DNA of 31,663 bases from Patescibacteria group bacterium (lineage in GTDB: Bacteria > Patescibacteriota > UBA1384 > JAGGWG01), in the NCBI GenBank assembly GCA_028698375.1, contig JAQVDI010000001.1, positions 1 through 31,663 of the forward strand, read 5' to 3'. The stretch's first letter is position 1. Each line of letters opens with the position of its first letter. Below are positions 1 through 13,209 of the stretch, one piece after another. The position numbers and the translations under genes were made by a program. The notes beneath the pieces are model-generated. The model was not told where the DNA came from. It ran no database searches and was given only the letters and a program-made list of their open reading frames with translations.

Positions 1-396
1 ATCATTCAGGCGATCATACATCTATTTCAAGGTCGCGATAGCCTCTTTATTGTTTGAATTGTGAGGAAAACTTGTTGTCATGCAGATAATCATGTCGAAT
101 TTTTCATTCCAAGACTTTGAAAGAGTTCTAAAGTTTTCATTTTTCAAAGCTATCGACAGACCTTTGAGATTTTTACCTGCACTTTTTAGCATTCCGTCCG
201 ACAAATCAGAGCCAGCACATTTAAGCCCAAGTTTATTCAACATGAACAAATGCCAGCCAGTGCCACAAGCACAGTCAAGACAGGTTTTTATTGAATATTT
301 CTCGATCAGCTTTTTGAAGAAAGATTCTTGTTTGAAAATTTCTTCTTTAGGTTGTAGTGCGTCGTAATCGACGGACAGATTTTGATAGTTATCCAT
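1..396 (-). pseudogene. Class I SAM-dependent methyltransferase interrupted by an in-frame TAG; runs off the left edge
   Basis: Motif I LDCACGTGWH, then GSDLS and FDMIICM. The frame stops at TAG 22-24 after 124 aa but continues in frame as ATG TAT GAT CGC CTG AAT GAT (MYDRLND) to position 1. Confidence 0.75.
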
Positions 397-420
397 AGTT
401 ATTTAGTAATTGCATAAAAG

Positions 421-450
421 ATTATATAAATTTTTTGATATGTCGCACAA
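421..450 (-). promoter_or_regulatory. Putative sigma70 promoter for the methyltransferase
   Basis: Minus strand TTGTGC (450-445), 18-nt spacer, TATAAT (426-421), about 25 nt upstream of the ATG at 396. Confidence 0.5.
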
Positions 451-519
451 CTCATTTCTATACGAATTAAATGTACAATATCGATCATTTTTTGTATATT
501 ATACGAATTTAATGTATAG
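445..519. other. attC-like imperfect hairpin / candidate recombination site
   Basis: CTATAC 458-463 pairs with GTATAG 514-519, ATTAAAT 466-472 with ATTTAAT 507-513, and GTACAATAT 473-481 with ATATTATAC 496-504 (one mismatch). GA bulges sit at 464-465 and 505-506. GCACAAC at 445-451 reads GTTGTGC on the minus strand. Confidence 0.55.
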
Positions 520-573
520 TTATTAATACAAATATTCATTTGCTAATTTGAGTTTACTAATTTTTACAAAATT

Positions 574-1389
574 ATGCAACAAAAATATTTAGACCAAACA
601 AATCAGGAATTAAAATTAAGAAATTACAGTTTCAAAACTGTAAAGATTTATCTTGCTTGTTTAAATGAATATTTTGATTTCAAAAAATTTAATTTAGGAA
701 AAATAGACGAAGAAAAAATAAAACAATTTTTGCTAAACAAACAAAACAAAAAATATGCCCCGCAAACAATTAATCTTTATTTAAACGCAATAAAATTTTT
801 CTACCGCGAAGTGCTAAAAAATACCCAAAAGATTAATTTGAAATTTGCCAAACGAAATAAAAAACTGCCGATTGTTTTATCAAGAAAAGAAATCAAAAAT
901 ATTATTGACACAATTAAAAATCCAAAACATAAATTAATAATTTCTTTAACTTACGGTGCCGGACTCCGAATCAACGAAGTGATAAATTTAAAAGTAAAAG
1001 ATATTGATGTGGATGAGCTGGTAATACATTTGAAAAATGCAAAAGGTAAAAAAGACAGAATCACAATTTTTCCTGAAAAATTAAAAAATAGTATATTAAA
1101 TTTAATAATGGGGAAAGATTTTGATGATTATATTTTTGAAAGCGAAAGAGGAGGAAAACTATCAGAAAGAACAGCTCAAAAAGTTTTTAAAAAGGCGCTC
1201 AAAGAAACTAGCATTAAAAAAGATGCCACCTTTCATTCGCTTAGACATTCTTTTGCCACTCATTTATTAGAAAATGGGGTAGATGTTCGTTATGTCCAAG
1301 AACTTCTTGGCCATCAAAATATTAGAACTACTCAAATATATACACAAGTAACTAATCCGAAGCTAAAAAATATTAAAAGTCCCTTATAA
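574..1389 (+). CDS. Tyrosine recombinase, integron-integrase-like but without the IntI insertion
   Basis: N-terminal LKLRNYSFKTVKIY. Catalytic set GLRINE, KGKKDR, HSLRHSFATH, LLGH and TQIY. Ends in SPL. Confidence 0.92.
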   Translation: MQQKYLDQTNQELKLRNYSFKTVKIYLACLNEYFDFKKFNLGKIDEEKIKQFLLNKQNKKYAPQTINLYLNAIKFFYREVLKNTQKINLKFAKRNKKLPIVLSRKEIKNIIDTIKNPKHKLIISLTYGAGLRINEVINLKVKDIDVDELVIHLKNAKGKKDRITIFPEKLKNSILNLIMGKDFDDYIFESERGGKLSERTAQKVFKKALKETSIKKDATFHSLRHSFATHLLENGVDVRYVQELLGHQNIRTTQIYTQVTNPKLKNIKSPL

Positions 1390-1421
1390 CAAAAAAGCGG
1401 GTAATTTGTCTATTTTATAAT

Positions 1422-1510
1422 CGGTGGGGGTGGGATTCGAACCCACGATCATCTTGCGATGATTCCGCTTTTCGAGAGCGGCCCGATCAACCAAACTCCG
1501 GCACCCCACC
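1422..1510 (-). tRNA. tRNA-Ser(CGA)
   Basis: Acceptor GGTGGGG/CCCCACC, anticodon arm CCGCT-CTCGAAA-AGCGG, long variable arm, GGTTCGAATCC T-loop. CCA is not encoded. Confidence 0.95.
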
Positions 1511-1554
1511 AACTATTTATAATTCCATAAAAAAAGAGTAAAATCAATTTAAAA

Positions 1555-1573
1555 GCCCCGTTTATAACGGGGC
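1555..1573 (-). terminator. Intrinsic terminator after the C39-like gene
   Basis: GCCCCGTT/AACGGGGC 8-bp stem followed by a T-run on the minus strand. Confidence 0.7.
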
Positions 1574-1581
1574 CATAATCT

Positions 1582-2703
1582 TTAATTAAAAAACCATTTT
1601 CTCATTGCTTTAAGCAAAATATTCCCAGTTATTTCTTCTGGCAAATAATCTTTTTCAGACTCAACTGATAAATTTATTTTTAAAGTTTTTTGATCTTGTT
1701 CTGTAATTGCTTCATACAGAAAATATTTTTTATGAAGATCAAGATAAATCGTTGATTCAGTCAATTTAACTGCTGGTTGTTCCACCAAAACATCCAAGCA
1801 ATCTTCCATCTCTAAAGCCAAACAATTTTTTCCTATCGGTGTGTTTTCGCGATCGCGCAAAAAACAATTTTGGATATCAACTACTCGCTTAGAGTCTCCG
1901 CCAAAAAGAGGAAGAACTGTTTTTTCCTCAACAATTAATATGTGATTACCAATTTGTTCAACCACCCAAACTTTATAAATAAAATGACTCGTGACAAAAC
2001 CACCAATTCTGCCTTTCAAAAAAGCTCTTTTTAATTTGCATAATGGCTCTTCAAATTCTTCTTTTGGTCGTCTTTTGAATCCAACAATCATTTTGTATCC
2101 GCCAATAGAGTCATTTATTTCTTGCCAAGAATAATTAATATTTTGTTTTTGGCAATCAGGATCTTGACAGATAACACCGTTATCATTATAACCATTGATA
2201 ACCATGATGTGTCCGCCATCATAACCCTTATCTTCACGATTACTTAATGCACCATAATTTGCCAAGGTAAAAATCACCGGAGACTGCTTGTCAATTTCTT
2301 CTTTTATTTTTTCTGCTGAATAATCAACTGCTTCTAATTTTTTAATCTGATAAATATGCTCCGCAGCAGTAATTAGCTCATCCCAACCAGTAGGCCGACC
2401 ATGCGACAAATAATATTCGTCATCAGCTTTTTCTGGTTCTAAAAAAGCATTAATTTTTTTTACATTCTCAAAATCAGCTTTGCGATATTGCATATAAGCC
2501 GCACACATTTCAAGCGAACAAGGTCCACAAGTTTGCGCTCCGCTGATAACTCCAATATCTTCGCCATATTCCAATAGATGTGGAACTGGTAAAATATTTT
2601 CTCCAAATACCGTCGAAAAACAAATCGTCTGTAAAATAATCACAAACCACAAAATAATGGAACATCGAGTTATTTTTCTGATCACTGCTCCCCTTTTTGT
2701 CAA
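1582..2703 (-). CDS. Exported C39-like (papain-fold) cysteine peptidase with an uncharacterised C-terminal domain
   Basis: Hydrophobic N-terminus, QTCGPCSL (Cys), GGHIMVINGY (His), QDP (Asp). Start is uncertain (TTG in the track). Confidence 0.7.
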   Translation of the reverse strand: MTKRGAVIRKITRCSIILWFVIILQTICFSTVFGENILPVPHLLEYGEDIGVISGAQTCGPCSLEMCAAYMQYRKADFENVKKINAFLEPEKADDEYYLSHGRPTGWDELITAAEHIYQIKKLEAVDYSAEKIKEEIDKQSPVIFTLANYGALSNREDKGYDGGHIMVINGYNDNGVICQDPDCQKQNINYSWQEINDSIGGYKMIVGFKRRPKEEFEEPLCKLKRAFLKGRIGGFVTSHFIYKVWVVEQIGNHILIVEEKTVLPLFGGDSKRVVDIQNCFLRDRENTPIGKNCLALEMEDCLDVLVEQPAVKLTESTIYLDLHKKYFLYEAITEQDQKTLKINLSVESEKDYLPEEITGNILLKAMRKWFFN

Positions 2704-2748
2704 AGAACTTCAACAAGATTATTATAAAACAAAAAATCCAGCCATCAA
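2688..2748 (-). promoter_or_regulatory. Promoter + boxA-like motif + SD
   Basis: TTGATG (2748-2743), N16, TATAAT (2726-2721); GTTCTTTGACAA (2708-2697); AAAGGGGAG. Confidence 0.45.
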
Positions 2749-2765
2749 ATATTAAGACAACTGGA

Positions 2766-3062
2766 TTAGATTTTTCTTTTCAATTTTTCAACTAAATTAA
2801 AAATCAACTCCATTAATGCAATTCCTGCAAATAAAAAAGCAAAAATATTAGCAATCACAACCGCCCGACATAATTCTTGAGTTAACGGCGTTCTACCAAA
2901 AGGAGAAATAACAAAACAAAATAAACTAAATGAAACAAAAGCAACAATAAACCATTTGGACAAACAAGGGATGTGAGCTTGATCTGTTTTAAGAAAATAA
3001 ATAACTATAGAAATAACAGTGGCAATTACCAAAAAAATTCCAGCCCAATAGGTAGGTTGCAT
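2766..3062 (-). CDS. Hypothetical small membrane protein (about 3 TM segments)
   Basis: 98 aa, three hydrophobic stretches, AAGGAG 8 nt before the ATG. Confidence 0.7.
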   Translation of the reverse strand: MQPTYWAGIFLVIATVISIVIYFLKTDQAHIPCLSKWFIVAFVSFSLFCFVISPFGRTPLTQELCRAVVIANIFAFLFAGIALMELIFNLVEKLKRKI

Positions 3063-3070
3063 TTTTCTTT

Positions 3071-3126
3071 CTCCTTTTCAAAGATCTTGTACAATTTAAA
3101 TATATTACAAAATTAAAAAAAGTCAA
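3071..3126 (-). promoter_or_regulatory. Promoter + boxA-like motif + SD
   Basis: TTGACT (3126-3121), N16, TATATT (3104-3099); GATCTTTGAAAA (3086-3075) running into AAGGAG. Confidence 0.6.
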
Positions 3127-3134
3127 CAAAAAAA

Positions 3135-3208
3135 TATCCTGGGCAGGGATCGAACCTGCAACCTACAGCTTAGAAGGCTGTCGCTCTAGCCAATTGAGCT
3201 ACCAGGAC
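3135..3208 (-). tRNA. tRNA-Arg(TCT)
   Basis: Acceptor GTCCTGG/CCAGGAT, anticodon arm ACAGC-CTTCTAA-GCTGT, GGTTCGATCC. Confidence 0.95.
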
Positions 3209-3229
3209 ATAATTTGGTTTGTTGACGAA

Positions 3230-3250
3230 AATTTTCAATTCACAATTTTC
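3230..3250. repeat. Heptamer tandem repeat (AATTTTC-type, 3 copies)
   Basis: AATTTTC AATTCAC AATTTTC between tRNA-Arg and tRNA-Lys. Confidence 0.5.
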
Positions 3251-3277
3251 AATAAATATGAAAAAACTAGGGCAAAA

Positions 3278-3350
3278 AGGGCCCAGTGGGATTCGAACCC
3301 ACGACACGAGGATTAAGAGTCCTCTGCTCTACCAACTGAGCTATGGGCCC
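3278..3350 (-). tRNA. tRNA-Lys(CTT)
   Basis: Acceptor GGGCCCA/TGGGCCC, anticodon arm GAGGA-CTCTTAA-TCCTC, GGTTCGAATCC. The discriminator reads T and CCA is not encoded. Confidence 0.95.
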
Positions 3351-3400
3351 CTCACCTAGTCCGCCAAATTTTGACGAGTTAGGTGAGGGACTATGGGCCC
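3341..3400. repeat. 40-bp hairpin flanked by a 10-bp duplication of the tRNA-Lys 5' end
   Basis: CTATGGGCCC at 3341-3350 and 3391-3400. Inverted repeat CCCTCACCTA 3349-3358 / TAGGTGAGGG 3380-3389. Confidence 0.8.
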
Positions 3401-3497
3401 AAATACAATTTTGAAATAATTTTCAAAAAGTTATATATAAATAATTTTATTAAATAAATAACAAATTTAACTAAAAAATCTGGATTAGTAATTTGCT

Positions 3498-3572
3498 TGG
3501 TGCGCGTGGGAGGTATCGAACCTCCGACCTCGTCTTTATCAGAGACGCGCTCTACCACTGAGCTACACGCGC
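3498..3572 (-). tRNA. tRNA-Ile(GAT)
   Basis: Acceptor GCGCGTG/CACGCGC, anticodon arm CGTCT-CTGATAA-AGACG, encoded CCA. Confidence 0.96.
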
Positions 3573-3665
3573 ATATCTATACTTAAATTATTATGCAAAA
3601 ATTAATCCTAAAAATCAATATCTTAATAAAAAAGTCCGCAATCACCTTTAAGCGCTTAACGGACT

Positions 3666-4652
3666 TTATTGATAGAATAAATTTTTAGAACGCTCTCGCG
3701 AGTTCCCCCAACCAAAGCCACCCTTGTTTCTTTGGTGAGACCCACCAGCTCTTTGAACGCAATAATCATGAAAAGGACAAAGCGTTAAACAATGACAAGC
3801 TGCTTTTTGTTCTAATTTTGAGACTTTAAAACAGATATTAGCTCCAGTGTGCCAAAGAGACTGTAAAGCTTCAAACCAAGACAAATTATAGCGATTAAAC
3901 ATATAAACTAAAAAGTCGCTAACAATATAAGAAGCAGTATTCTTTTTATCAGTACTCCATTCAATCAAAATATTAAAATTACGCATTTCACGAGCAATCC
4001 ACAAATCAACTGGTGCTACTGCAATTTGTTTTAAATCCTTCCAATCGTTTAAGTGATCTTGCCATTCCACATCCTGGAAATAAAGAGCCACTAATTGAGC
4101 TACTTTTTGACCATATCCATAAAAACGTGATAACTCTTTAATCAACCCTGCACGATTCCTAGAAGACTGGTAAAAAATATTACGAGCATCACTATCATAA
4201 TCTTTGCGTAATAAATCTAAATTAAACTTCCAACCAATCAATTTTTCATTTTTTTCTTTTTTGCCCCCTTCTGTTTTAGCAGAAGTAAAAGCCAAAACAG
4301 GTCCAAGCTTTTGTCCAGCTAAATCTTCATTATATTTTAATAAGGGATCAATTAACCACGGGTGTTGATTAAATATATTGCTACCTTCACCTATGGCAAC
4401 ATTTGTTTTTTCACCATAACGATTCAATGATCCGTAAGAAAAAAGATATAACCCATGCATCCTTGAACCATATTCAAAACCTGCAGGCAAATGAACTAAT
4501 TCTGGCTGATCGCAGTTAATTAGATGTTTATATTTTCCATGCCAAGCACTCACAGCCAAATTGAGAACTTCCAAAGCCCTATTCTCATCAAAAATAATCC
4601 AATTTTTACCACGTCTTACTGTGACCAATCCATCTTTTACTGAGATATCCAT
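3666..4652 (-). CDS. HhH-GPD superfamily DNA glycosylase-like protein with C-terminal Cys cluster (paralogue 1)
   Basis: HhH LSRFYGYGQKVAQL, APVDLWIAR, C-x13-C-x3-C-x5-C. Confidence 0.65.
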   Translation of the reverse strand: MDISVKDGLVTVRRGKNWIIFDENRALEVLNLAVSAWHGKYKHLINCDQPELVHLPAGFEYGSRMHGLYLFSYGSLNRYGEKTNVAIGEGSNIFNQHPWLIDPLLKYNEDLAGQKLGPVLAFTSAKTEGGKKEKNEKLIGWKFNLDLLRKDYDSDARNIFYQSSRNRAGLIKELSRFYGYGQKVAQLVALYFQDVEWQDHLNDWKDLKQIAVAPVDLWIAREMRNFNILIEWSTDKKNTASYIVSDFLVYMFNRYNLSWFEALQSLWHTGANICFKVSKLEQKAACHCLTLCPFHDYCVQRAGGSHQRNKGGFGWGNSRERSKNLFYQ

Positions 4653-4658
4653 TTTAGA

Positions 4659-4716
4659 CCTTTTTGTTAAAGGGCGTTAACTTAAAAATTATATAGTTAA
4701 AAATTAATATGTGCAA
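4659..4716 (-). promoter_or_regulatory. Promoter + boxA-like motif
   Basis: TTGCAC (4716-4711), N17, TATAAT (4693-4688); CGCCCTTTAACAA (4676-4664); weak SD AAAAGG. Confidence 0.6.
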
Positions 4717-4727
4717 ATAAACAAAAA

Positions 4728-4751
4728 AACCCGCCAAGATCATGACGGGTT
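4728..4751 (-). terminator. Intrinsic terminator overlapping the stop of glycosylase paralogue 2
   Basis: Minus strand AACCCGTCA/TGGCGGGTT stem followed by a T-run. Confidence 0.6.
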
Positions 4752-5681
4752 GGAAGAAAATAAAGTTAATCGTGGAAAAGCATAATTCCAATTCATAGTA
4801 CCATCAACTTTATACATTGAACCAGTACAAATGCGTTTACAATATCTGTTAAATGGACATTCAACATAACAATAGCTACCAACCGAATAAGGATCCATCG
4901 GACGTTTAACACAAATCTGTCCAGCATGCCAGAAAGCATTTGATAACCGACTATGATTAATATTATAATCATGGCAAATTTTTGCAATAAATTCACTTGT
5001 CGGCAAACGAACAGCATCATGTTGATCAGTATCCCAATTTATAACAATATCCCATTGTCTCATAAATCGTAAAATCCAAAGATCCACCGGCATCATCTCA
5101 ATCTCACGAATTTCTTTCCAATCTTTTTCACAATATTGCCAAGCGACATCTTGATACCAAATTGCAGCTAATTGAGCCACTTTAGAAGCAATACCATAAA
5201 AATTCGATAAAGCGGAGATAACGCCTTCGCGAGAACGTTCTGCTCTTAAAATAATTTCGCCCGGATCTCCATCATATTGATCACGTAAAATCTTCAAATT
5301 ATGTCGCCAACCATCAATTCGCAATTTTCCTTCTCGACCTAATTCTGAATTAATGGAAACAAAACCCATAACTCCAGATAACAACTGATGATAATCCAAA
5401 TTCTCAAAATCAGACATAGGGTCAATTAATCGTGGATCTAATACAATTGATTTTGAGAACTTAGGCATGGCACGATTTGACGCTTGGCCATAACGATTAA
5501 TTGCTGCTCCAAAAAAAATCCAACGCCTATGATCAACTGAACCATATTTAATAAAATCAGGCATATAGACAACTTCCGGTTGCTTCATCTTACCGTAACC
5601 AAGAATTTTATTTTCCCAAGCCCAAACTGCATATTTAAAAATTTCAATGGCCCTTTCATTATCAAACTCAAGATTTGCCAT
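4740..5681 (-). CDS. HhH-GPD superfamily DNA glycosylase-like protein with C-terminal Cys cluster (paralogue 2)
   Basis: HhH LSNFYGIASKVAQL, MPVDLWILR, C-x13-C-x3-C-x5-C. The ATG at 5681 is preferred over the TTG at 5687 because AAGGAG lies 6 nt upstream. Confidence 0.65.
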   Translation of the reverse strand: MANLEFDNERAIEIFKYAVWAWENKILGYGKMKQPEVVYMPDFIKYGSVDHRRWIFFGAAINRYGQASNRAMPKFSKSIVLDPRLIDPMSDFENLDYHQLLSGVMGFVSINSELGREGKLRIDGWRHNLKILRDQYDGDPGEIILRAERSREGVISALSNFYGIASKVAQLAAIWYQDVAWQYCEKDWKEIREIEMMPVDLWILRFMRQWDIVINWDTDQHDAVRLPTSEFIAKICHDYNINHSRLSNAFWHAGQICVKRPMDPYSVGSYCYVECPFNRYCKRICTGSMYKVDGTMNWNYAFPRLTLFSSNPS

Positions 5682-5686
5682 TTGCA

Positions 5687-5744
5687 ACTCCTTTTCAAAG
5701 AGCGTTAGCTTTAAAATTTTAGAACTAAAAAATAGTTAGGTCAA
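5687..5744 (-). promoter_or_regulatory. Promoter + boxA-like motif + SD
   Basis: TTGACC (5744-5739), N17, TAAAAT (5721-5716); CGCTCTTTGAAAA (5704-5692) running into AAGGAG. Confidence 0.65.
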
Positions 5745-5795
5745 GTTCGATAAAAATCAGCGCATACCCAAGAGGTGTGCTTTTAAAGTTACTAT

Positions 5796-5993
5796 TTATT
5801 TTTTCTTACCAAAAATGAATAAATATAAAATTGGCAGGATGCCAGCTGTATTAAAAATCATTATCACCACAAACCACGGCACCGAATCATTTTTAGCTGC
5901 ACGCCACAAGGCGAACGCCTTCCAAACTGATTCCCAAAGAACTAAAAAACCAATTAGCCATAACATTCCAACAGAATAACCTAAAGTTTCCAT
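5796..5993 (-). CDS. DUF5652-like small membrane protein
   Basis: WESVWKAFALWRAAKND..WF....FNTAGILPILY pattern, two TM segments. Confidence 0.75.
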   Translation of the reverse strand: METLGYSVGMLWLIGFLVLWESVWKAFALWRAAKNDSVPWFVVIMIFNTAGILPILYLFIFGKKK

Positions 5994-6013
5994 AAATTTC
6001 CTTTTTCAATTTT

Positions 6014-6325
6014 TTATTGTCTGTTACTGTATTTTAATCGATTGTTCAACTCTACCAACCTTTTTGCCTTTGCATTATCAAAATTGCCCGAATCAATTTG
6101 CTCTTTCCGAAGCTGTTTTAATTCTTCTTGCTCTTCTTGCGTTAAAGGATCACAACGATATTCTTCTTTATGTGTTTCTCGTTCATATTTCTTTTGTTCT
6201 GCAAGTAAACGCTGCATTTCTGCATTTTCTTCATTAGTTTTTTGATTAAGACTAATTAACTCAGTAATTCTTGCTAATCTTCTTTGTTTACCATCATCAA
6301 CATTTTGTGGCTCTGATTCATTCAT
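6014..6325 (-). CDS. Hypothetical helical / coiled-coil protein
   Basis: 103 aa, E/Q/K/R/L-rich, in line with the ABC operon. Confidence 0.65.
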   Translation of the reverse strand: MNESEPQNVDDGKQRRLARITELISLNQKTNEENAEMQRLLAEQKKYERETHKEEYRCDPLTQEEQEELKQLRKEQIDSGNFDNAKAKRLVELNNRLKYSNRQ

Positions 6326-6356
6326 AAATTTTTTATTAATTTCTTAAATTTTACCA

Positions 6357-7166
6357 TTAAGATACAGAAATGTCTCGTCGCTTGAAAATTATTAAACCTA
6401 ATAAAAAAAACAAAATGATAGCACCCAAAAAAACGACTAAAGTGAGCCACTCAATTTTGCCATCACCTAAAATTAAATTTGGATTAAAATAATGAAAAAA
6501 TGACAAAAACTTTAAATCTTCGACGCTTTTTTTCAAACTAGATAAAATATTAAAAGCATACATCAAAACAACTAAACCAACAGTAAAAAAAATTACTTTT
6601 CCTCGATCAGAAAAAACGGCAGATAAAAAACTAGCTAAGCTAAAAATCGCCCCTGAAAACAAAATGCCAACTAACCAAATAGCCAAAAAGTGAGCTAATT
6701 GAAAATTAATTCCATAAACTAAAATTAATAGAATAATACTTAAAACGGAAATTGTCGTAAAAACAAAAAGGTTAAAAAAACCAGCTAAGTATTTTGCGAA
6801 AAATATTTTTGCACGAGAAATTGGTTGTGCCAAAATTGTTTCCATTGTGCCTTTCTCAATTTCTCCTGCCACCGAAAAGGCGCCCATACCCACGACTAAA
6901 CTAATAATTAAAATAGGCCAAATAAAACTAAACATTTCCATCGCTAAATAATTTTCTACATGAGAAAAAGAAAGCTGGACATTCCCTCCAAAAACTTCTA
7001 AAAAACCTTGTGGATAAGTTTCAATTAATTTTTGCAATTCTTCGGCTTGACTCTGGATATAGGGGAATAAACCAATATACATCCAAGCAAAACCAAAATT
7101 AGCTGCTAAAAAAATAATCAAAGACAAATAACGATCTTTAATAACCCTTAGAAATATAGTTTTCAT
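6357..7166 (-). CDS. ABC-2-type exporter permease
   Basis: About 6 TM segments, AGEIEKGTMETILAQPISR motif, ends KRRDISVS. Confidence 0.9.
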   Translation of the reverse strand: MKTIFLRVIKDRYLSLIIFLAANFGFAWMYIGLFPYIQSQAEELQKLIETYPQGFLEVFGGNVQLSFSHVENYLAMEMFSFIWPILIISLVVGMGAFSVAGEIEKGTMETILAQPISRAKIFFAKYLAGFFNLFVFTTISVLSIILLILVYGINFQLAHFLAIWLVGILFSGAIFSLASFLSAVFSDRGKVIFFTVGLVVLMYAFNILSSLKKSVEDLKFLSFFHYFNPNLILGDGKIEWLTLVVFLGAIILFFLLGLIIFKRRDISVS

Positions 7167-7173
7167 AAAACGA

Positions 7174-8046
7174 TTAATTCTTATAAAATTCTAAGAAAAT
7201 ATCTTCTAGGCCACCATGATTAATTTCCAAATCCCTTAATTTATACTTGGCCAAAATCTTTAATAAATTATTAATATCACCTTTTACAATTAATTTTAAA
7301 TTACCATCAATTTGTTCTTTAATTTCAACTCCACTAATTTTAAAATCATTAAGCTCATAATCACTTTCAAAAAAAACTCGCACATCATAAATATGTTTTT
7401 TCTTTAATTCTTTTATATCTTCAACAGCCATTAATTTACCTGCTTTAATAATTGCCGCTCGGTCACAAATACGTTGTACCTCAGGCAAATTATGCGAAGA
7501 CAAAAAAATCGTTACGCCTTTATCCTTATAATCTTCTAAAGTTTTATAAACCGCATTTTGCAAAAGAGGATCAAGACCAGTGGTAAGCTCATCTAAAATT
7601 AAAACTTTAGGTTCACTCATCAAAGCTAAAATTAATGATAATTTTTGCCGATTGCCACTAGATAAATTGCGTATTTTAACTTTCGGATTAAAATCAAATT
7701 TTTCTATTAATCTTTTTGCTTCATCCATACCTCCCCGAATACGCGCGATAAATTGCAGATGATCGTCGCCAGTCCAATTTTCATAAAGCCTTGGTTGAGG
7801 CGCCAAATAACCTAATTCTTGTTTGATATCAATTGAATCAAACCGAGAATCTTTATCTAAAATTTTTATTTCACCTCCATCAGCTCTAATAAAATCCATC
7901 ATCATTCTAATTGTTGTGGTTTTACCCGCGCCATTAGGACCCAAAAAGCCAAAAATTTCACCTTTCTTAACTTTAAAGCTAATTTTATCTACGGCTTTAA
8001 CCACACCAAAATGTTTAATTAAATTTTTGACTTCAATTGCTATCAT
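7174..8046 (-). CDS. ABC exporter ATP-binding subunit
   Basis: Walker A GPNGAGKT, signature LSSGNRQ, Walker B LILDE, H-loop SSH. Confidence 0.95.
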   Translation of the reverse strand: MIAIEVKNLIKHFGVVKAVDKISFKVKKGEIFGFLGPNGAGKTTTIRMMMDFIRADGGEIKILDKDSRFDSIDIKQELGYLAPQPRLYENWTGDDHLQFIARIRGGMDEAKRLIEKFDFNPKVKIRNLSSGNRQKLSLILALMSEPKVLILDELTTGLDPLLQNAVYKTLEDYKDKGVTIFLSSHNLPEVQRICDRAAIIKAGKLMAVEDIKELKKKHIYDVRVFFESDYELNDFKISGVEIKEQIDGNLKLIVKGDINNLLKILAKYKLRDLEINHGGLEDIFLEFYKN

Positions 8047-8089
8047 AAAATTATTATAAACTAAAATCTAAAAACACAAAACAAAAATC

Positions 8090-8142
8090 TTGACTTAGAC
8101 CTAAAATTTATTTATATTTGAACAAGCATCTTAAAAAGGAGA
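8090..8142 (+). promoter_or_regulatory. Promoter + boxA-like motif + SD
   Basis: TTGACT (8090-8095), N17, TATATT (8113-8118); GCATCTTAAAA from 8126 running into AAGGAG. Confidence 0.55.
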
Positions 8143-8148
8143 AAGTAA

Positions 8149-8421
8149 ATGGAAAATCATAATGGAAAATGGAGATTAGCCGGTTATGATGTTATTAGTG
8201 ATGAACTTTATAATATTAGAGGCGACAATGCGAATATTACTGAATATGATACAGAAGAGGCAGCTCAAGCTGCTGCTATTATACAAATTCAAAGAATAGA
8301 AGAATTACAACCAATTGAAGAAGCTGGTGAGATACAAGACAAAATTTGTATTATTGATCCTAACGGAAAACCAAAACTTTTTGAACCTAAAATTAAAATC
8401 CCAAACCCTAATAAAAATTAA
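8149..8421 (+). CDS. Hypothetical acidic protein
   Basis: 90 aa with its own promoter, strong SD and downstream terminator. Confidence 0.75.
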   Translation: MENHNGKWRLAGYDVISDELYNIRGDNANITEYDTEEAAQAAAIIQIQRIEELQPIEEAGEIQDKICIIDPNGKPKLFEPKIKIPNPNKN

Positions 8422-8432
8422 TCATAAATTTT

Positions 8433-8458
8433 AAATCTACCTCTACTTAGGTAGATTT
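8433..8458 (+). terminator. Intrinsic terminator
   Basis: AAATCTACCT/AGGTAGATTT 10-bp stem followed by a T-run. Confidence 0.75.
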
Positions 8459-8674
8459 TTTATTGTCGAAATCATTTTTATTAAAATTTTCTTTAATTAT
8501 ATCAGGCATATTACTCGCGATTGCGTTAAATTTTCCTGATATAAAAGTAAGTTTTTATCTAAAATTATAAATTATATCCTTTATTTTTTATATATCGCAC
8601 AATTCATAAATAATATAAATTAGAATTATTGGCAAAAGATATTTTTTATGGTAATCTGTAGCAATATAAAATTC

Positions 8675-8740
8675 TGTCATCCTGAGGCAACAGCCGAAGA
8701 ATCTCAGACCCTGAGATTCTTCACTTTGTTCAAAATGACA
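8675..8740. repeat. REP/MITE-like palindromic element
   Basis: Termini TGTCAT/ATGACA. Perfect internal 12-bp stem GAAGAATCTCAG 8696-8707 / CTGAGATTCTTC 8711-8722. Confidence 0.7.
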
Positions 8741-8750
8741 AAAAACAAAA

Positions 8751-9881
8751 ATGAAAAATATTAAAAAAAACTTCTCGACAAGCTCGCAGAATAAAAAATT
8801 GCCACTCTCCGACAAGCTCAGAATAAACTCTCCTCAGAATGACCAAGTGGTGGCAGTGGGCATGAGCGGCGGGATTGATTCCACTATAACGGCTTATCTT
8901 TTAAAAAAACAAGGCTACAAAGTAGTTGGATTAACAATGATGTTAAAAAATGACAAGCAAAAACAACAGGAAATTAAAAAGATAACTGAAAAATTAAAAA
9001 TAAAAAATTATTTTATTGATTTATCAAAAGATTTCAAAAAAATCGTTCTTGATTATTATCGTCAAGAATATTTGAATGGACGCACGCCTAACCCTTGTAT
9101 TATCTGCAACCAAAAAATTAAGTTTGATTTGTTGCTAAAGACCGCTAAAAAAAGTGGAATTCAGTTTGATTTTTTTGCTACTGGCCACTATGTCCGTCTT
9201 GCTAAAGATCCAAAAACTAGATGTTTTTTCTTAAAAAAAGGCAAAGATACTAAAAAAGATCAATCATATTTTTTATATCGGCTTAACCAGATACAATTAA
9301 AAAATTTAATTTTCCCCTTAGGTAATTTAACTAAAAATAAAGTCAAAAAAATGGCTTTACAATTAGGATTTAAGGAATTGCTGGCTAAACCAGAAAGCCA
9401 AGATTTTTTTAACTGTGCTGATCAAAATAATTTATTCGACAAAACAAAGATTAAAACTGGCGACATTATTAATCACCATAAAAAAATTGTCGGAAAACAT
9501 AACGGAATTATTAATTATACAATTGGTCAAAGAAAAGGCCTTTCTGGTGGTGGAACAAAAATTCCCATGTATGTAATAAAAATTAATACGACAAAAAATC
9601 AAATTATGATCGGGCCTCGCAAAAAACTCTTAGCTAAAAAATTAATAGCAATTTCACCAAACTGGATTTCAATTAAACAACCAGAAAAAAAATTATTAGC
9701 GTACGCAAAAATTCGTTTTGGAGCCAAATCTGCAAAATGCCAAATCAAATTAATAGAAAACAACCAATTAAAAGTAGAATTTAAAAACCCCCAATTTGCA
9801 ATTACCCCCGGACAATCAATTGTTTTTTATCAAAAAAATTTGCTTTTAGGTGGAGCAATTATTTCTCAAATTTTAATATAA
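8751..9881 (+). CDS. mnmA: tRNA 2-thiouridine(34) synthase MnmA
   Basis: SGGIDS PP-loop, GRTPNPCIICN, ATGHYVR, KDQSYFL, YTIGQRKG, AITPGQS. The start may instead be GTG 8847. Confidence 0.93.
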   Translation: MKNIKKNFSTSSQNKKLPLSDKLRINSPQNDQVVAVGMSGGIDSTITAYLLKKQGYKVVGLTMMLKNDKQKQQEIKKITEKLKIKNYFIDLSKDFKKIVLDYYRQEYLNGRTPNPCIICNQKIKFDLLLKTAKKSGIQFDFFATGHYVRLAKDPKTRCFFLKKGKDTKKDQSYFLYRLNQIQLKNLIFPLGNLTKNKVKKMALQLGFKELLAKPESQDFFNCADQNNLFDKTKIKTGDIINHHKKIVGKHNGIINYTIGQRKGLSGGGTKIPMYVIKINTTKNQIMIGPRKKLLAKKLIAISPNWISIKQPEKKLLAYAKIRFGAKSAKCQIKLIENNQLKVEFKNPQFAITPGQSIVFYQKNLLLGGAIISQILI

Positions 9882-9958
9882 TCTTAAAGTAATTGCTATT
9901 AACAAACAACTTAACGCGAAAATAATTTAGATCTAAAATTAATTCCAAAAGATAAATG

Positions 9959-10639
9959 TTATAAATTCACTCCGGTTTCTGGCAAAATTTCTGCTACTGA
10001 TTCAGCTACATTAACCACAATTCTCACTGCTGAATCACGACCTGTACCAAGAGCATAAGCTTCACGAGTCAAATCATCAAATAAAAAGTTAAGAACCCTA
10101 GTTTGGTAAGAGGCAATTTCCATTTTTGCGATTATTACGGTTTCTCCAACAGGAAAATTATTTTCTAACACAAAATTAAAATCAGCACATTCGCTGCCAT
10201 TTAGGGGATTACATTCTTCAATGGTAGTATTTGACACTTGAGATATCTGAGCATTTTCCATCCCCTCACCTAAAGTATAACTACGCCCGTTACCATCGAC
10301 ATCAGCATCATCTAGATTAATTGCGCTAACATAACCAAAATTAGTTAATGTCCCTTCAGCTATAGCTCCATACGCGTCACCAGTACCAGTATTCCACATT
10401 TTACCTCTAACCAAAACTGTGTCGCCGGGATCGGCAACAACGCTTTCACCGTCAGAAAATTCAGTACCGGAATAATTTTTCCAAGTAACACCGTTGTCTA
10501 AACTTGCTTCTAACTTAATATGCAAATTAACATCATCTTCTTGCGCCTTAACTGGCTGGATCAAACTTAAAGAATAACAGGTTACACCTAGAGCTAAAGC
10601 AACACCAAAACCTAAGATAACCTTTTTAAATTTTGTCAT
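9959..10639 (-). CDS. Secreted beta-rich (DUF11/Ig-like) surface protein ending in LPETG
   Basis: Signal peptide ending PVKA, ADPGDTVLVRGKMWNTG Ig-like pattern, C-terminus ILPETGVNL. Confidence 0.7.
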   Translation of the reverse strand: MTKFKKVILGFGVALALGVTCYSLSLIQPVKAQEDDVNLHIKLEASLDNGVTWKNYSGTEFSDGESVVADPGDTVLVRGKMWNTGTGDAYGAIAEGTLTNFGYVSAINLDDADVDGNGRSYTLGEGMENAQISQVSNTTIEECNPLNGSECADFNFVLENNFPVGETVIIAKMEIASYQTRVLNFLFDDLTREAYALGTGRDSAVRIVVNVAESVAEILPETGVNL

Positions 10640-10813
10640 TTTTCCTCACAATTTATTTTTTTTATTATACCACATAATTAAAACAAAAAAATCTACTTAG
10701 AAGTAGATTATATCATTGCACTATGGATTCATTATCTATCAGGCTATCAAAACATATTTATTATGTAATTTGGAGTTTATAAATATTCCAAATTTATTGT
10801 CAAAATAAAAAAA

Positions 10814-10835
10814 CCTAGAAAATATTATTTCTAGG
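10814..10835 (-). terminator. Intrinsic terminator after the G/S/N-rich gene
   Basis: CCTAGAAA/TTTCTAGG stem followed by a T-run on the minus strand. Confidence 0.6.
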
Positions 10836-10856
10836 ATAAAATATAAATCAAATTAT

Positions 10857-11660
10857 TTAATGCCCCCTAAGATTTCGACCTTTCCAATAACCTTGAGAAT
10901 ACCCAGAATAATAAGGGCTATAACAACCCTTTTTAGCATTACCGGGAGGAGGATCCCAAACACCATTATAACCATCAATATATCCAACTTCTACACCTTG
11001 GCTATGAACATTTTGATTATATTTACCTCGAACCTTATGAGGTGCCTTAATCAAATGTTGCGGATGCTTCGCTTGGGGTACAGATCTTTCTCTAGCTTGG
11101 TTATTTGAATTGTGACGATAACCAAAACCAGTTCTTTCATCGCTAGAGTAATTACCGCTATTATTTTGGTATGCAACCTGATCAGAGTTAACTGTAACTC
11201 GATCAGAATAAGACAAGGGATCTGTCCTGCCAATGCAATTACCCCGATCATCATAATGATAAATAGAACCATTATCCTGCTGAATTGATTGGCCAATCAA
11301 TTGGCCTTGTTGACCATAATGAACAGTTTGACTCCCATTATGAACTGACTGCCCAACTTGATTTGAACCAAAAATGCCATCAATCCAACCCATATAACCA
11401 CCAGCATAATGATAATCTCTATCTCCTACAGAAATTGTATGCCCAGATGATCGGCCGCTAGAATCAAAATGATTAGTACCTAAGCCACCTGATTCAGAAT
11501 GACCAGCCGAAGAGCCATCACCAGAATAATGAGATCCATTACCGCTAAAGTTATTACCGCTAGAATTAGAATTAGAACCATTAAATATATCTACTTCATT
11601 TGCAAAACCAGCAGCCAATTCTCCAAGTGCTCCAAGTATGCCACCATCATTTTTACCCAT
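10857..11660 (-). CDS. Hypothetical G/S/N/Q/Y/H-rich low-complexity repeat protein
   Basis: Long open frame with its own promoter, SD and terminator. The ATG at 11660 is preferred over the GTG at 11669 (AAGGAG 8 nt upstream). Confidence 0.7.
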   Translation of the reverse strand: MGKNDGGILGALGELAAGFANEVDIFNGSNSNSSGNNFSGNGSHYSGDGSSAGHSESGGLGTNHFDSSGRSSGHTISVGDRDYHYAGGYMGWIDGIFGSNQVGQSVHNGSQTVHYGQQGQLIGQSIQQDNGSIYHYDDRGNCIGRTDPLSYSDRVTVNSDQVAYQNNSGNYSSDERTGFGYRHNSNNQARERSVPQAKHPQHLIKAPHKVRGKYNQNVHSQGVEVGYIDGYNGVWDPPPGNAKKGCYSPYYSGYSQGYWKGRNLRGH

Positions 11661-11667
11661 TTCACTC

Positions 11668-11727
11668 ACTCCTTTTCAAAGAGCGTTAGCTACTTTAAAA
11701 TATACCATTTAAATATTGGTTTGTAAA
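11668..11727 (-). promoter_or_regulatory. Promoter + boxA-like motif + SD
   Basis: TTTACA (11727-11722), N17, TGn-TATATT (11704-11699); CGCTCTTTGAAAA (11685-11673) running into AAGGAG. Confidence 0.65.
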
Positions 11728-11812
11728 TAAAAAAATAGCTAACAGATAAGAGGTTCTAATTTCCTATGATATCTAATATGTAGATTTAAAATTAACAGAG
11801 GAAAATTTCAAG

Positions 11813-11885
11813 GGTGGATGAAGGGATTTGAACCCTCAACCGCCAGAGCCACAATCTGGTGCGCTACCATTGCGCCACATCCACC
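11813..11885 (-). tRNA. tRNA-His(GTG)
   Basis: Encoded G-1 opposite C73, acceptor GTGGATG/CATCCAC, anticodon arm CCAGA-TTGTGGC-TCTGG. Confidence 0.95.
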
Positions 11886-11968
11886 ATTAAAAACCCTAAA
11901 ACAACAATAATAAGATAGCAAAAAATAAACACTTTTGCAATCTATGATTTATTTGTATAATAGACTTA

Positions 11969-12868
11969 ATGAATAAAAAAGCACTTTTTTGGGTCATAAT
12001 TAGTTTTTTAGTTTTAATTGATGCTGGTCTTATTTTATATCAATTTGTTTACAAAAAACCAAAAGCCGATATCAATTTAACCCCTAATGCTGCTAATATC
12101 AAAAATTTTAATCTTACCCCACAAATTAATCCTAACCCGACACCAATTAATCTTAGCTTTCAAGAAAATCAAAAAATATATACTCCTGAAAGTAATTATT
12201 TTTACAAACACCCTGTTCTTTTGGAAAGAGAAGAAGATAATTTGCTTTTTTTAGCTCGGGGCAAATCAAGTGTTAAGTTAGATGAAATTATTTATACCAA
12301 AACTTTTGATCTTGCAGATTGGGCTGCTCCAACGAGTATAAAAAATTTTACAGACAAAAAAATTGTAGATCTTTTCGCCACAAAAAACCAACAAGGTTAT
12401 TATCTTTTATATATTACTCAAGATAATGATCAAAAATATGAAACCAATTATTTATATTCCATTAATGGCACTGATTGGGGTGAAAAAACAATTAACTTGC
12501 CTACAGCTGGATTAAAAAAGGTTTCAGCAACAGCCGATAAAAATAGTTTAAGAACAATTTTTTTAGATGCTAACAATCGCACAATCAAACAAAACTTTCT
12601 TTTGCAAAATAGAACTTGGACCAGTATCAAAACTGTAATTAATCTAAATTTAGAAATCAGCGACATGGACCTAATCGCTACTCCGGATTTTTATTATTTA
12701 TTATTTTCAAGCTCCAATATTCTTTATGAGACTCACTCCGTTGATTTTCATACTTTTAGCGCGCCACAAGCTATTGTTAACCTCAAAGATAATGATTTTT
12801 ATTTAAGCGACATTGGTTTGATAACCTTAAACGCAGAGGGTGTTTTCTTGGCAAAAAATGATTTTTAA
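11969..12868 (+). CDS. Membrane-anchored extracytoplasmic beta-rich protein, possibly an Asp-box/propeller fold
   Basis: N-terminal TM, N/P-rich linker, Asp-box-like YSINGTDW and HSVDFHTF. Confidence 0.55.
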   Translation: MNKKALFWVIISFLVLIDAGLILYQFVYKKPKADINLTPNAANIKNFNLTPQINPNPTPINLSFQENQKIYTPESNYFYKHPVLLEREEDNLLFLARGKSSVKLDEIIYTKTFDLADWAAPTSIKNFTDKKIVDLFATKNQQGYYLLYITQDNDQKYETNYLYSINGTDWGEKTINLPTAGLKKVSATADKNSLRTIFLDANNRTIKQNFLLQNRTWTSIKTVINLNLEISDMDLIATPDFYYLLFSSSNILYETHSVDFHTFSAPQAIVNLKDNDFYLSDIGLITLNAEGVFLAKNDF

Positions 12869-12951
12869 CTTGTATTTTAATGATATTTGTGTTATTATTT
12901 TATACGTCTCTGTAGGCCGAAAGGGATGGAAAAATAAGTAAAAGGAACTTT

Positions 12952-13209
12952 ATGAGAATTTTTGTAGGAAACTTACCTTGGGTAGTTAAGAAAGAAGACC
13001 TAATTGCAAAATTCAGCGAATTTGGTCAAGTCGAAGAGGAAAACACTCTTATTATTGTCGACGCCAATGGCCGAAGCAAAGGTTTTGGTTTTGCTGAAAT
13101 GCCCAATGAAGAAGAAGCTAAAAAAGCTATGGAAGCACTCAATGGTCAAGATTGGGAAGGTAGAGCCGTTGTTGTTAACGAAGCTCGCCCCATGAAAAAC
13201 AAAGAGTAA
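12952..13209 (+). CDS. Single-RRM RNA-binding protein
   Basis: RNP2 IFVGNL, RNP1 RSKGFGFAEM, VVNEARP. Confidence 0.95.
   Translation: MRIFVGNLPWVVKKEDLIAKFSEFGQVEEENTLIIVDANGRSKGFGFAEMPNEEEAKKAMEALNGQDWEGRAVVVNEARPMKNKE

Follow-up and report, generated by a model that had tools for sequence, protein, structure and literature searches.

Genes and leaders of the window

The stretch of DNA considered here, referred to as the window, spans 31,663 nt and constitutes contig C33 of a 75-contig, 630,756-bp assembly of a Patescibacteria group bacterium (33% GC, 92.5% complete, standard genetic code), labelled G000 in comparisons with its relatives. The source organism is treated here as a bacterium of the candidate phyla radiation (CPR)/Patescibacteria type. 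The stretch is contained in DNA runs of metagenomes sampled from landfill, sludge and groundwater, and the atlas look-alikes of one window protein belong to Parcubacteria-type phyla, which serves as a lead only. Six genes of the window, encoding a C39-like peptidase, a 98-aa protein, two tandem paralogues, a 90-aa protein and a 267-aa protein, carry in their 5' leaders a 12-nt motif that resembles boxA, the NusB-NusE(S10) loading site of rRNA transcripts, and that leads straight into the Shine-Dalgarno (SD) sequence. Neither the 98-aa protein nor the paralogues have a Pfam match. The paralogues (328 and 313 aa; 3666-4652 and 4740-5681, minus strand) are 36% identical and both of their leaders carry the motif; their C-termini are Cys-rich, and the product of the 4740-5681 gene has a single homologue (73% identity) among the 5.8 billion proteins searched. 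Three motif genes have tRNA genes as immediate neighbours (regions 1421-1511, 3134-3572 and 11812-11884): the 98-aa gene is preceded by tRNA-Arg and the 267-aa gene by tRNA-His, while the peptidase gene is followed by tRNA-Ser. This fits island-like accessory DNA at tRNA loci.

An initial annotation of the window had described six copies of the motif in leaders of accessory genes, each preceded by a -35/-10 promoter and followed by a ribosome-binding site. All six were found in place and in this order, downstream of σ70-like promoters scoring 10/12 and with an SD 0-3 nt 3' of the motif. On the minus strand, GTTCTTTGACAA (2708-2697) stands in the leader of the C39-like peptidase gene (GTG at 2685), with the SD GGGGAG at 2693-2688 and the promoter TTGATG-16-TATAAT at 2721..2748, and the motif is retained in orthologous leaders. 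The copy GATCTTTGAAAA (3086-3075, minus), directly followed by GGAG, belongs to the 98-aa gene (ATG at 3062; promoter TTGACT-16-TATATT, 3099..3126) and is identical to the Bacillus subtilis rrn boxA core (core from PMC13753749). The 328-aa paralogue (ATG at 4652) has GCCCTTTAACAA (4675-4664, minus; from 4676 with the preceding C) followed by AAAGG, and its promoter TTTGCA-18-TATAAT (4688..4717) lies just after a terminator-like hairpin (4751-4728), while the 313-aa paralogue (ATG at 5681) has GCTCTTTGAAAA (5703-5692, minus; from 5704 with the preceding C) directly followed by GGAG, downstream of TTGACC-17-TAAAAT (5716..5744). The same 12-mer GCTCTTTGAAAA, with GGAG directly after it, occurs at 11684-11673 (minus; from 11685 with the preceding C) in the leader of the 267-aa gene (ATG at 11660), whose promoter TTTACA-17-TATATT (11699..11727, minus) has an extended TG. 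On the plus strand, a degenerate copy with one T fewer and an A at position 8, GCATCTTAAAAA (8126..8137; 11/12 in the loose matrix described below), is followed by GGAG and precedes the 90-aa gene (ATG at 8149), downstream of TTGACT-17-TATATT (8090..8118).

The distance from the end of the -10 box to G1 of the motif is 12 nt for the copies at 2708, 3086, 4675 and 5703, 14 nt for that at 11684 and 7 nt for that at 8126. The SD appears as AAGGAG, AAAGG or GGGGAG, and ATG or GTG follows another 6-8 nt on. Two genes have better starts than the TTG given in the open reading frame (ORF) list, namely the ATG at 5681 and the GTG at 2685, both properly spaced from an SD. The RNA form of the motif is written as GCUCUUUGAAAAGGAG and the leader RNA oligo as AACGCUCUUUGAAAAGGAGU.

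Metatranscriptome contigs from two anaerobic-digester RNA runs overlap several motif genes, but starts, strand and level are unreadable from them and DNA carry-over is possible, so they are not used as evidence; nor are the RNA-run contig ends located 2-8 nt from start codons (2693, 3066, 8151). One such contig bridges 1992-2802 and so covers the terminator-like hairpin and the promoter that separate the peptidase gene from the 98-aa gene, which could reflect read-through transcription or DNA carry-over. In two DNA runs no strain variant is listed within the motifs, the coverage of motif positions not being certain.

Genome-wide enrichment of the leader motif

The gene caller used is crude (66% of the genome covered); caller-dependent statistics were avoided and enrichment was obtained instead from context-based counts with permutation controls. 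The genome scan and the background comparison that the initial annotation had proposed both support its observation. A scan with GYTCTTTRAMA gives 14 matches in 0.63 Mb, 7 of them in the promoter-motif-SD-start layout, and CTTTGAMAA before SD and start lies far above composition-matched permuted 9-mers. This word occurs at 49 sites in the genome, and 11 of these are placed directly before an SD, a start and an ORF, a context that makes up 0.66% of genome positions, with 0.3 expected and a 34-fold enrichment before SDs; 150 permuted 9-mers average 0.09 sites in the same context and never exceed 3. A search that did not presuppose the motif ranks CTTTGA second by enrichment among the 6-mers of the 22-nt stretch preceding SDs, and the overlapping words TTGACA, TTTGAA, GCTCTT and TGACAA are also top-ranked. 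When leaders were chosen by promoter and SD alone, 22 had 30-41 nt from -10 box to start, of which 10 carry the strict motif and about 16 carry it when degenerate copies are counted; no leader with ≥44 nt in the same selection has it. A loose 12-position boxA matrix (≥11/12) recognises 26 of 211 SD-led starts, compared with 2 when the windows are reversed, 1 when they are reverse-complemented, a mean of 1.1 (maximum 4) after shuffling and 1.1 in random genome windows. This genome thus contains a motif family of about 25 members, strictly confined to the sense strand.

The comparison set consisted of the 40 nearest species representatives (genomes of 0.5-1.1 Mb), with G001 as the sister genus and G002, G004 etc. 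as further relatives. Across these 40, a strict motif-SD-ATG pattern yields about 40 matches, versus about 8 for a reversed control pattern, and good promoter-motif-SD cases occur in several families. Given that no more than about 4 leaders carry it in the sister genus G001, the motif family is expanded in the lineage of the window. A scan of window positions 1-13000 with the Rfam 15 covariance models (E ≤ 5) returned only tRNAs and sub-threshold matches outside the leaders.

Several non-leader matches of the genome to CTTTGAAAA are accounted for by a second repeat family of TTGAAAAT-like units (e.g., TTCTTTGAAAATTGAGAACTGAAAATTGAAAATTC), present at about 9 intergenic sites: window 3227-3252 (minus, between tRNA-Lys and tRNA-Arg) and contigs C4, C17, C28, C32, C36, C49, C52 and C72. 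GC-rich hairpins come after some of the units, and some units immediately precede genes without an SD. This family is absent from the sister genus G001 and may represent a promoter type.

SD-led accessory genes in an SD-poor genome

The motif had been reported as missing before the housekeeping genes at 13-31 kb of the window, and this holds. It is absent there because most genes of this region lack any SD and most are inside operons. They include genes for glycosyltransferases, thioredoxin reductase, PPIase, LytR, QueA, RuvB and a RimK-like protein, and their starts mostly follow plain A/T-rich sequence; in a 662-aa lamin-tail-like gene (start 25350), only 7 nt separate a TATAAT box from the ATG, so that this gene may be leaderless. 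Genome-wide, a 4-mer SD near any candidate start is found for at most 100 of 431 long ORFs (23%). The anti-SD of CPR ribosomes has been reported as less often detected in part of the Parcubacteria (PMC9297842), and in the sister genus G001 the 16S rRNA 3' end carries CCTCCT. The description of the motif genes as accessory is also well founded: 4 of 16 have a tblastn hit in G001, compared with 65% of all called genes, and they are mostly lineage-specific. The proposed contrast between core and accessory genes needs rewording, however; the accessory bias is there, but the real contrast is between SD-led, separately transcribed genes and genes without SD.

Conservation of the motif at orthologous leaders

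Orthologous leaders were picked by protein homology alone. Where the C39-peptidase leader of the window has GTTCTTTGACAA, orthologues have GTTCTTGAACAA (62% protein identity), GCTCATTGACAA (54%), GCTCTTTGAAAA (53%), GCTCCTTGAAAA (51%) and GCTCTTTAACAA (35%). The last of these (L216) equals the Escherichia coli rrn boxA core, and a stem-loop lies ahead of it, so that the region (L216 960-1000) reads as stem-loop then boxA, like a boxB-boxA order. The 98-aa gene, with GATCTTTGAAAA in the window, has GTTCTTTGAGAA and GTTCTTTGAAAA in orthologous leaders, and for the tandem pair the leaders of the 73%-identical orthologues read GTCCTTTGAAAAGGAG, belonging to the orthologue of the 313-aa gene, and GTCCCTTGAAAAGGAG. 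The motif stands 0-1 nt from the SD in all orthologues, whereas the distance from -10 box to motif varies from about 6 to 34 nt, and the purine half (R8 A9 M10 A11 A12) is conserved as much as the pyrimidine half. A leader of the sister genus (G001:C8, L029, minus, ~10567-10590) has two boxA-like elements in tandem (GTTCTTTGAAAGTTCTTTGAAAA), located after a consensus promoter and ahead of the SD of a gene for a small membrane protein.

The conservation of both halves bears on a rival explanation of the motif, in which CUCUUU pairs with AAGGAG in an anti-SD hairpin that sequesters the SD or stabilises the mRNA 5' end, without any protein reader and with a coincidental likeness to boxA. CUCUUU-GAA-AAGGAG and its variants can indeed form 4-6 bp, the pairing is present in the minimum free energy (MFE) folds of 11 of 16 leaders, and some orthologues are even more complementary (CTCCTT/AAGGAG in G001; TCCTT/AAGGA in L093). 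However, the pairing is weak in energy (-0.4 to -7.2 kcal/mol) and does not surpass that of shuffled sequences (z -1.5 to +0.8), own arms do not pair better than swapped arms (-3.2 versus -3.4 kcal/mol; permutation p = 0.70), covariation gives no support, the L214 variant GCTCATTG breaks the stem, and the would-be loop (G8 A9 M10 A11 A12) is conserved in orthologues although a hairpin does not require it. On the stability and arm-swap tests the hairpin is rejected as sufficient, and as the full account of the motif it is distinctly unlikely.

The distribution of the copies could alternatively reflect a passive expression cassette, i.e., a promoter, leader and strong SD that give separately transcribed and often recently acquired genes an efficient or stable 5' end, by enhancing translation or resisting RNases, and that spread by duplication or recombination without acting as a switch. 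The layout resembles the T7 gene 10 leader AACTTTAAGAAGGAG. The restriction of the motif mostly to lineage-specific genes, often beside tRNA genes, and its abundance relative to the sister genus (about 25 versus about 4 copies) would agree with such spread, as would a 24-nt leader stretch that is identical between 5692-5708 and the leader at 11673, before genes for unrelated proteins. Yet the promoters of these two leaders differ, as they do among the copies in general, and identity begins at about +1, which indicates that whole cassettes were not copied; moreover, the 12-mer is kept in 36%-identical paralogues and in 35%-identical orthologues. Enhancement by epsilon-type pairing with 16S rRNA was also considered and dropped, since the complementarity of the motif is at chance level (-11.7 versus -9.7 ± 1.5 kcal/mol) and no better than that of shuffled motifs. 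We regard a purely passive cassette as improbable to a marked degree.

Beyond these orthologues, a scan of metagenome contigs with the C39-peptidase protein found no relatives. The 16-mer GCTCTTTGAAAAGGAG has at least 119 matches in 596 Gb of genome contigs, about the number expected by chance, many of them coding (peptide LFEKE). Few true-looking leaders are present among the matches listed, and they come from Clostridia, Saccharibacteria, Uhrbacteria and one bin labelled γ-proteobacterial. The examples from outside CPR (L101, L117, L120, L150) are a few Clostridia/Oscillospiraceae contigs and the latter bin, in which a hairpin or promoter is followed by GCTCTTTGAAAAGGAG and a start codon; judged from these arrangements, the fused layout may extend beyond CPR.

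Identity of the motif and of its reader

The motif consensus is G-Y-Y-C-T-T-T-G/A-A-A/C-A-A, with conservation at G1, Y2, C4, T6, T7, R8, A9, A11 and A12 and no constraint at position 10. The resemblance to boxA noted in the initial annotation is strengthened by this comparison, as every conserved position of the published consensuses is matched and the motif varies where those vary. The consensus used for γ-proteobacteria is GYTCTTTAANA (PMC5725501). In E. coli, boxA reads UGCUCUUUAACA; in B. subtilis it reads AUGAUCUUUGAAA, and this latter sequence binds B. subtilis NusB as determined by NMR (PMC13753749). The motif fits both GYUCUUUAANA and the Gram-positive form GAUCUUUGAAA. It lies on the sense strand, with the predicted promoters ending 6-34 nt upstream of it.

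BoxA-like elements are also present in the rRNA leaders of relatives, where they occupy canonical places. In the sister genus G001, the 23S leader contains GCACTTTGAAAA about 50 nt before the mature end and the 16S leader contains GCTCTCTAAATAA just after the promoter; other families have elements of the GTAYTTTAACAA type, with GTACTTTAACAA (G002, 16S), GTATTTTAACAA (G004, 16S), GTAATTTAACAA (G019, 23S) and ATACTTTAACAA (G036, 23S). An A at position 3 is found in mRNA copies of G004, G014, G024 and G036 and likewise in the rrn elements of G002, G004, G019 and G036. The co-variation of mRNA motif and rrn boxA at this position across relatives is suggestive, the numbers being small.

The 16S genes of two relatives have peculiarities of their own. 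At the 5' end of the G001 gene (L005, G001:C2:28900-29700, ~575-745), a GC-rich, hairpin-forming insertion of about 110 nt is flanked by a duplication of the first ~37 nt of 16S (ctatttgagaagagtttgatcctggctcagggtgagc). The G002 gene (G002:C4:39405-42634; L011, L012) is split by large insertions, so that model positions 9-873 span 1.9 kb, and L012 (G002:C4:38700-39450) contains an apparent ORF, possibly for an intron-encoded protein.

The high information content of the motif and its conservation in orthologues imply a trans-acting reader without specifying its identity. Besides NusB-S10, this could be another RNA-binding protein, a small RNA, a DNA-binding repressor or σ region 4 recognising TTGACA/TTGAAA at about +10, hexamers that are contained within the motif. 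The absence of nusB from the assembly and the lack of a signal of Nus autoregulation, both described below, also speak for a different reader. Against it stands the agreement with boxA at all 12 positions, including G1, Y2 and C4, which fall outside the -35-like hexamer. Readers acting on DNA are further disfavoured by the strand bias (26 copies in sense orientation versus 1 on the reverse complement), and a promoter-anchored operator by the fact that the distance to the promoter varies (6-34 nt) while that to the SD is fixed. A second promoter using the TTGACA of the motif as its -35 box was rejected, as by eye no -10 box is seen 16-18 nt downstream in the copies checked. A reader other than NusB-S10 is on balance unlikely, though it deserves to be kept in mind.

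A proposed boxA-type translational gate

The boxA match, taken together with the enrichment of the motif, its fixed position at the SD, its conservation in orthologues and the presence of S10, NusG and NusA, all three encoded in this genome, suggests the reading we favour: in a genome poor in SDs, a boxA-like RNA bound by NusB-S10 beside the SD would gate the translation of those genes that are SD-led, most of them accessory. This reading is given a probability of about 0.45. In such a mechanism, the motif would act in cis as an RNA element, with the same sequence as boxA, within 5' leaders of about 25-35 nt, transcription probably starting about 5 nt upstream of it. The NusB-S10 heterodimer, alone or tethered to RNA polymerase through NusG and NusA, would bind GYYCUUUGAMAA in the nascent transcript. 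With only 0-3 nt between it and the SD, the element falls within the 30S footprint, and bound factor and ribosome would therefore compete. Through this competition, the free pool of NusB-S10, and with it rRNA synthesis and ribosome assembly, would set initiation on about 25 SD-led, mostly lineage-specific genes. By analogy with suhB, the effect is assumed to be repression. An additional effect on pausing or intrinsic terminators is conceivable but unsupported.

The initial annotation had proposed a Nus-factor regulon that antiterminates or translationally gates accessory mRNAs, with nusB, nusE and suhB expected to be present. The boxA part of this proposal agrees with the data, and S10 (NusE) is encoded, but the proposed mechanism is weakened in that nusB is not in the assembly and that neither a SuhB homologue nor Rho was found. 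Rho is missing from all 41 genomes examined of the class, which makes classical anti-Rho antitermination unlikely and the suhB-type Rho output inapplicable; the output cannot be Rho-dependent termination, and its consequence must differ from that in suhB.

Several observations weigh against NusB-S10 as the reader. The first is the same lack of Rho (0/41), together with that of an Inositol_P/SuhB homologue, not found in G000, G001 or G002 and present in 11 of 41 genomes; in E. coli, control of suhB requires a complete Nus complex, of which SuhB is a part, and has Rho as its effector (PMC5725501). The second is that nusB was not found in the 92.5%-complete assembly. NusB is present in 38 of 40 relatives, and the genes flanking nusB in G001 have orthologues here that run to contig ends (position 41 of C45, position 48 of C53), which points to an assembly gap rather than to gene loss. 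Furthermore, no motif precedes rpsJ in this genome, or nusB in G001 and four other relatives, and there is thus no sign of Nus autoregulation in these genomes. The 16S and 23S genes and rRNA leaders of this genome are not in the assembly, and several rrn boxA-like elements of the class differ from the mRNA motif (A at position 3; T, A or C at position 4). Some orthologous copies of the motif are altered at position 5 or one T short (GCTCATTG, GTTCTTGA). Finally, the motif contains a -35-like TTGACA/TTGAAA and is pyrimidine-rich, hence SD-complementary, which makes other readers conceivable.

A broader reading goes beyond the single genome. In it, CPR bacteria without Rho, and mostly without SuhB, would have turned the rRNA boxA/NusB-S10 interaction into a genome-wide translational operator placed on nearly all strongly SD-led, separately transcribed genes, mostly accessory and possibly involved in host interaction, while core genes initiate without SD. 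This is tentative, and we hold it for somewhat doubtful. If true, one sensor of ribosome biogenesis would gate a whole gene class and form the largest Nus-factor mRNA regulon known relative to genome size.

To our knowledge, control by boxA and Nus factors outside rRNA and lambdoid phages is restricted to a handful of γ-proteobacterial mRNAs (suhB, CRISPR arrays, a ParE-type toxin), with a rationale tied to Rho, and a literature search found no paper linking boxA to CPR mRNA leaders. If NusB-S10 reads the motif, this would reveal a role of Nus factors without Rho, provide a simple global link between ribosome synthesis and accessory-gene expression in uncultured episymbionts, and explain why a minority of genes keeps strong SDs in SD-poor CPR genomes. 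If another reader is responsible, that reader would be an unknown global regulator of CPR bacteria. In practical terms, the motif marks separately transcribed, SD-led genes and aids the annotation of start codons and promoters.

Comparison with known systems

The leaders described here have partial counterparts in several known systems. SD-sequestering hairpins and the T7 gene 10 'epsilon' enhancer share with them a pyrimidine-rich stretch just upstream of AAGGAG, but here it comes without significant stability, covariation or 16S complementarity. The boxA CGCUCUUA of the lambda nut site, which needs boxB and protein N and acts against terminators, also loads Nus factors on mRNA and has the same CGCUCUU core as the window copies at 5704 and 11685, whereas no boxB or N analogue accompanies the leaders of this genome. 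In suhB of E. coli and Salmonella, a boxA located 6 nt from the SD in the 5' untranslated region (UTR) represses translation (Baniulyte et al. 2017, PMC5725501). The suhB leader and those described here both have a boxA-consensus element in an mRNA leader a few nt upstream of the SD, but in the genome studied here the distance is 0-3 nt and position 8 is usually occupied by G, which is the Gram-positive state. Instead of Nus factors, the genes concerned are for the most part orphan or accessory, and Rho and SuhB were not found. Consensus scans within 50 bp of start codons have identified further γ-proteobacterial boxA targets (PMC5725501), which amount to 0-7 copies per genome as compared with about 25 in 0.63 Mb here. 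Lastly, the boxA of rrn operons, which assembles a complex of NusB-S10, NusG, NusA, S4 and SuhB, differs in that here the element is placed before protein-coding genes and fused to the SD, with no boxC or processing stem; what the two have in common is the 12-nt consensus, down to the B. subtilis core in two window copies, and a position near the 5' end of the transcript, as predicted here.

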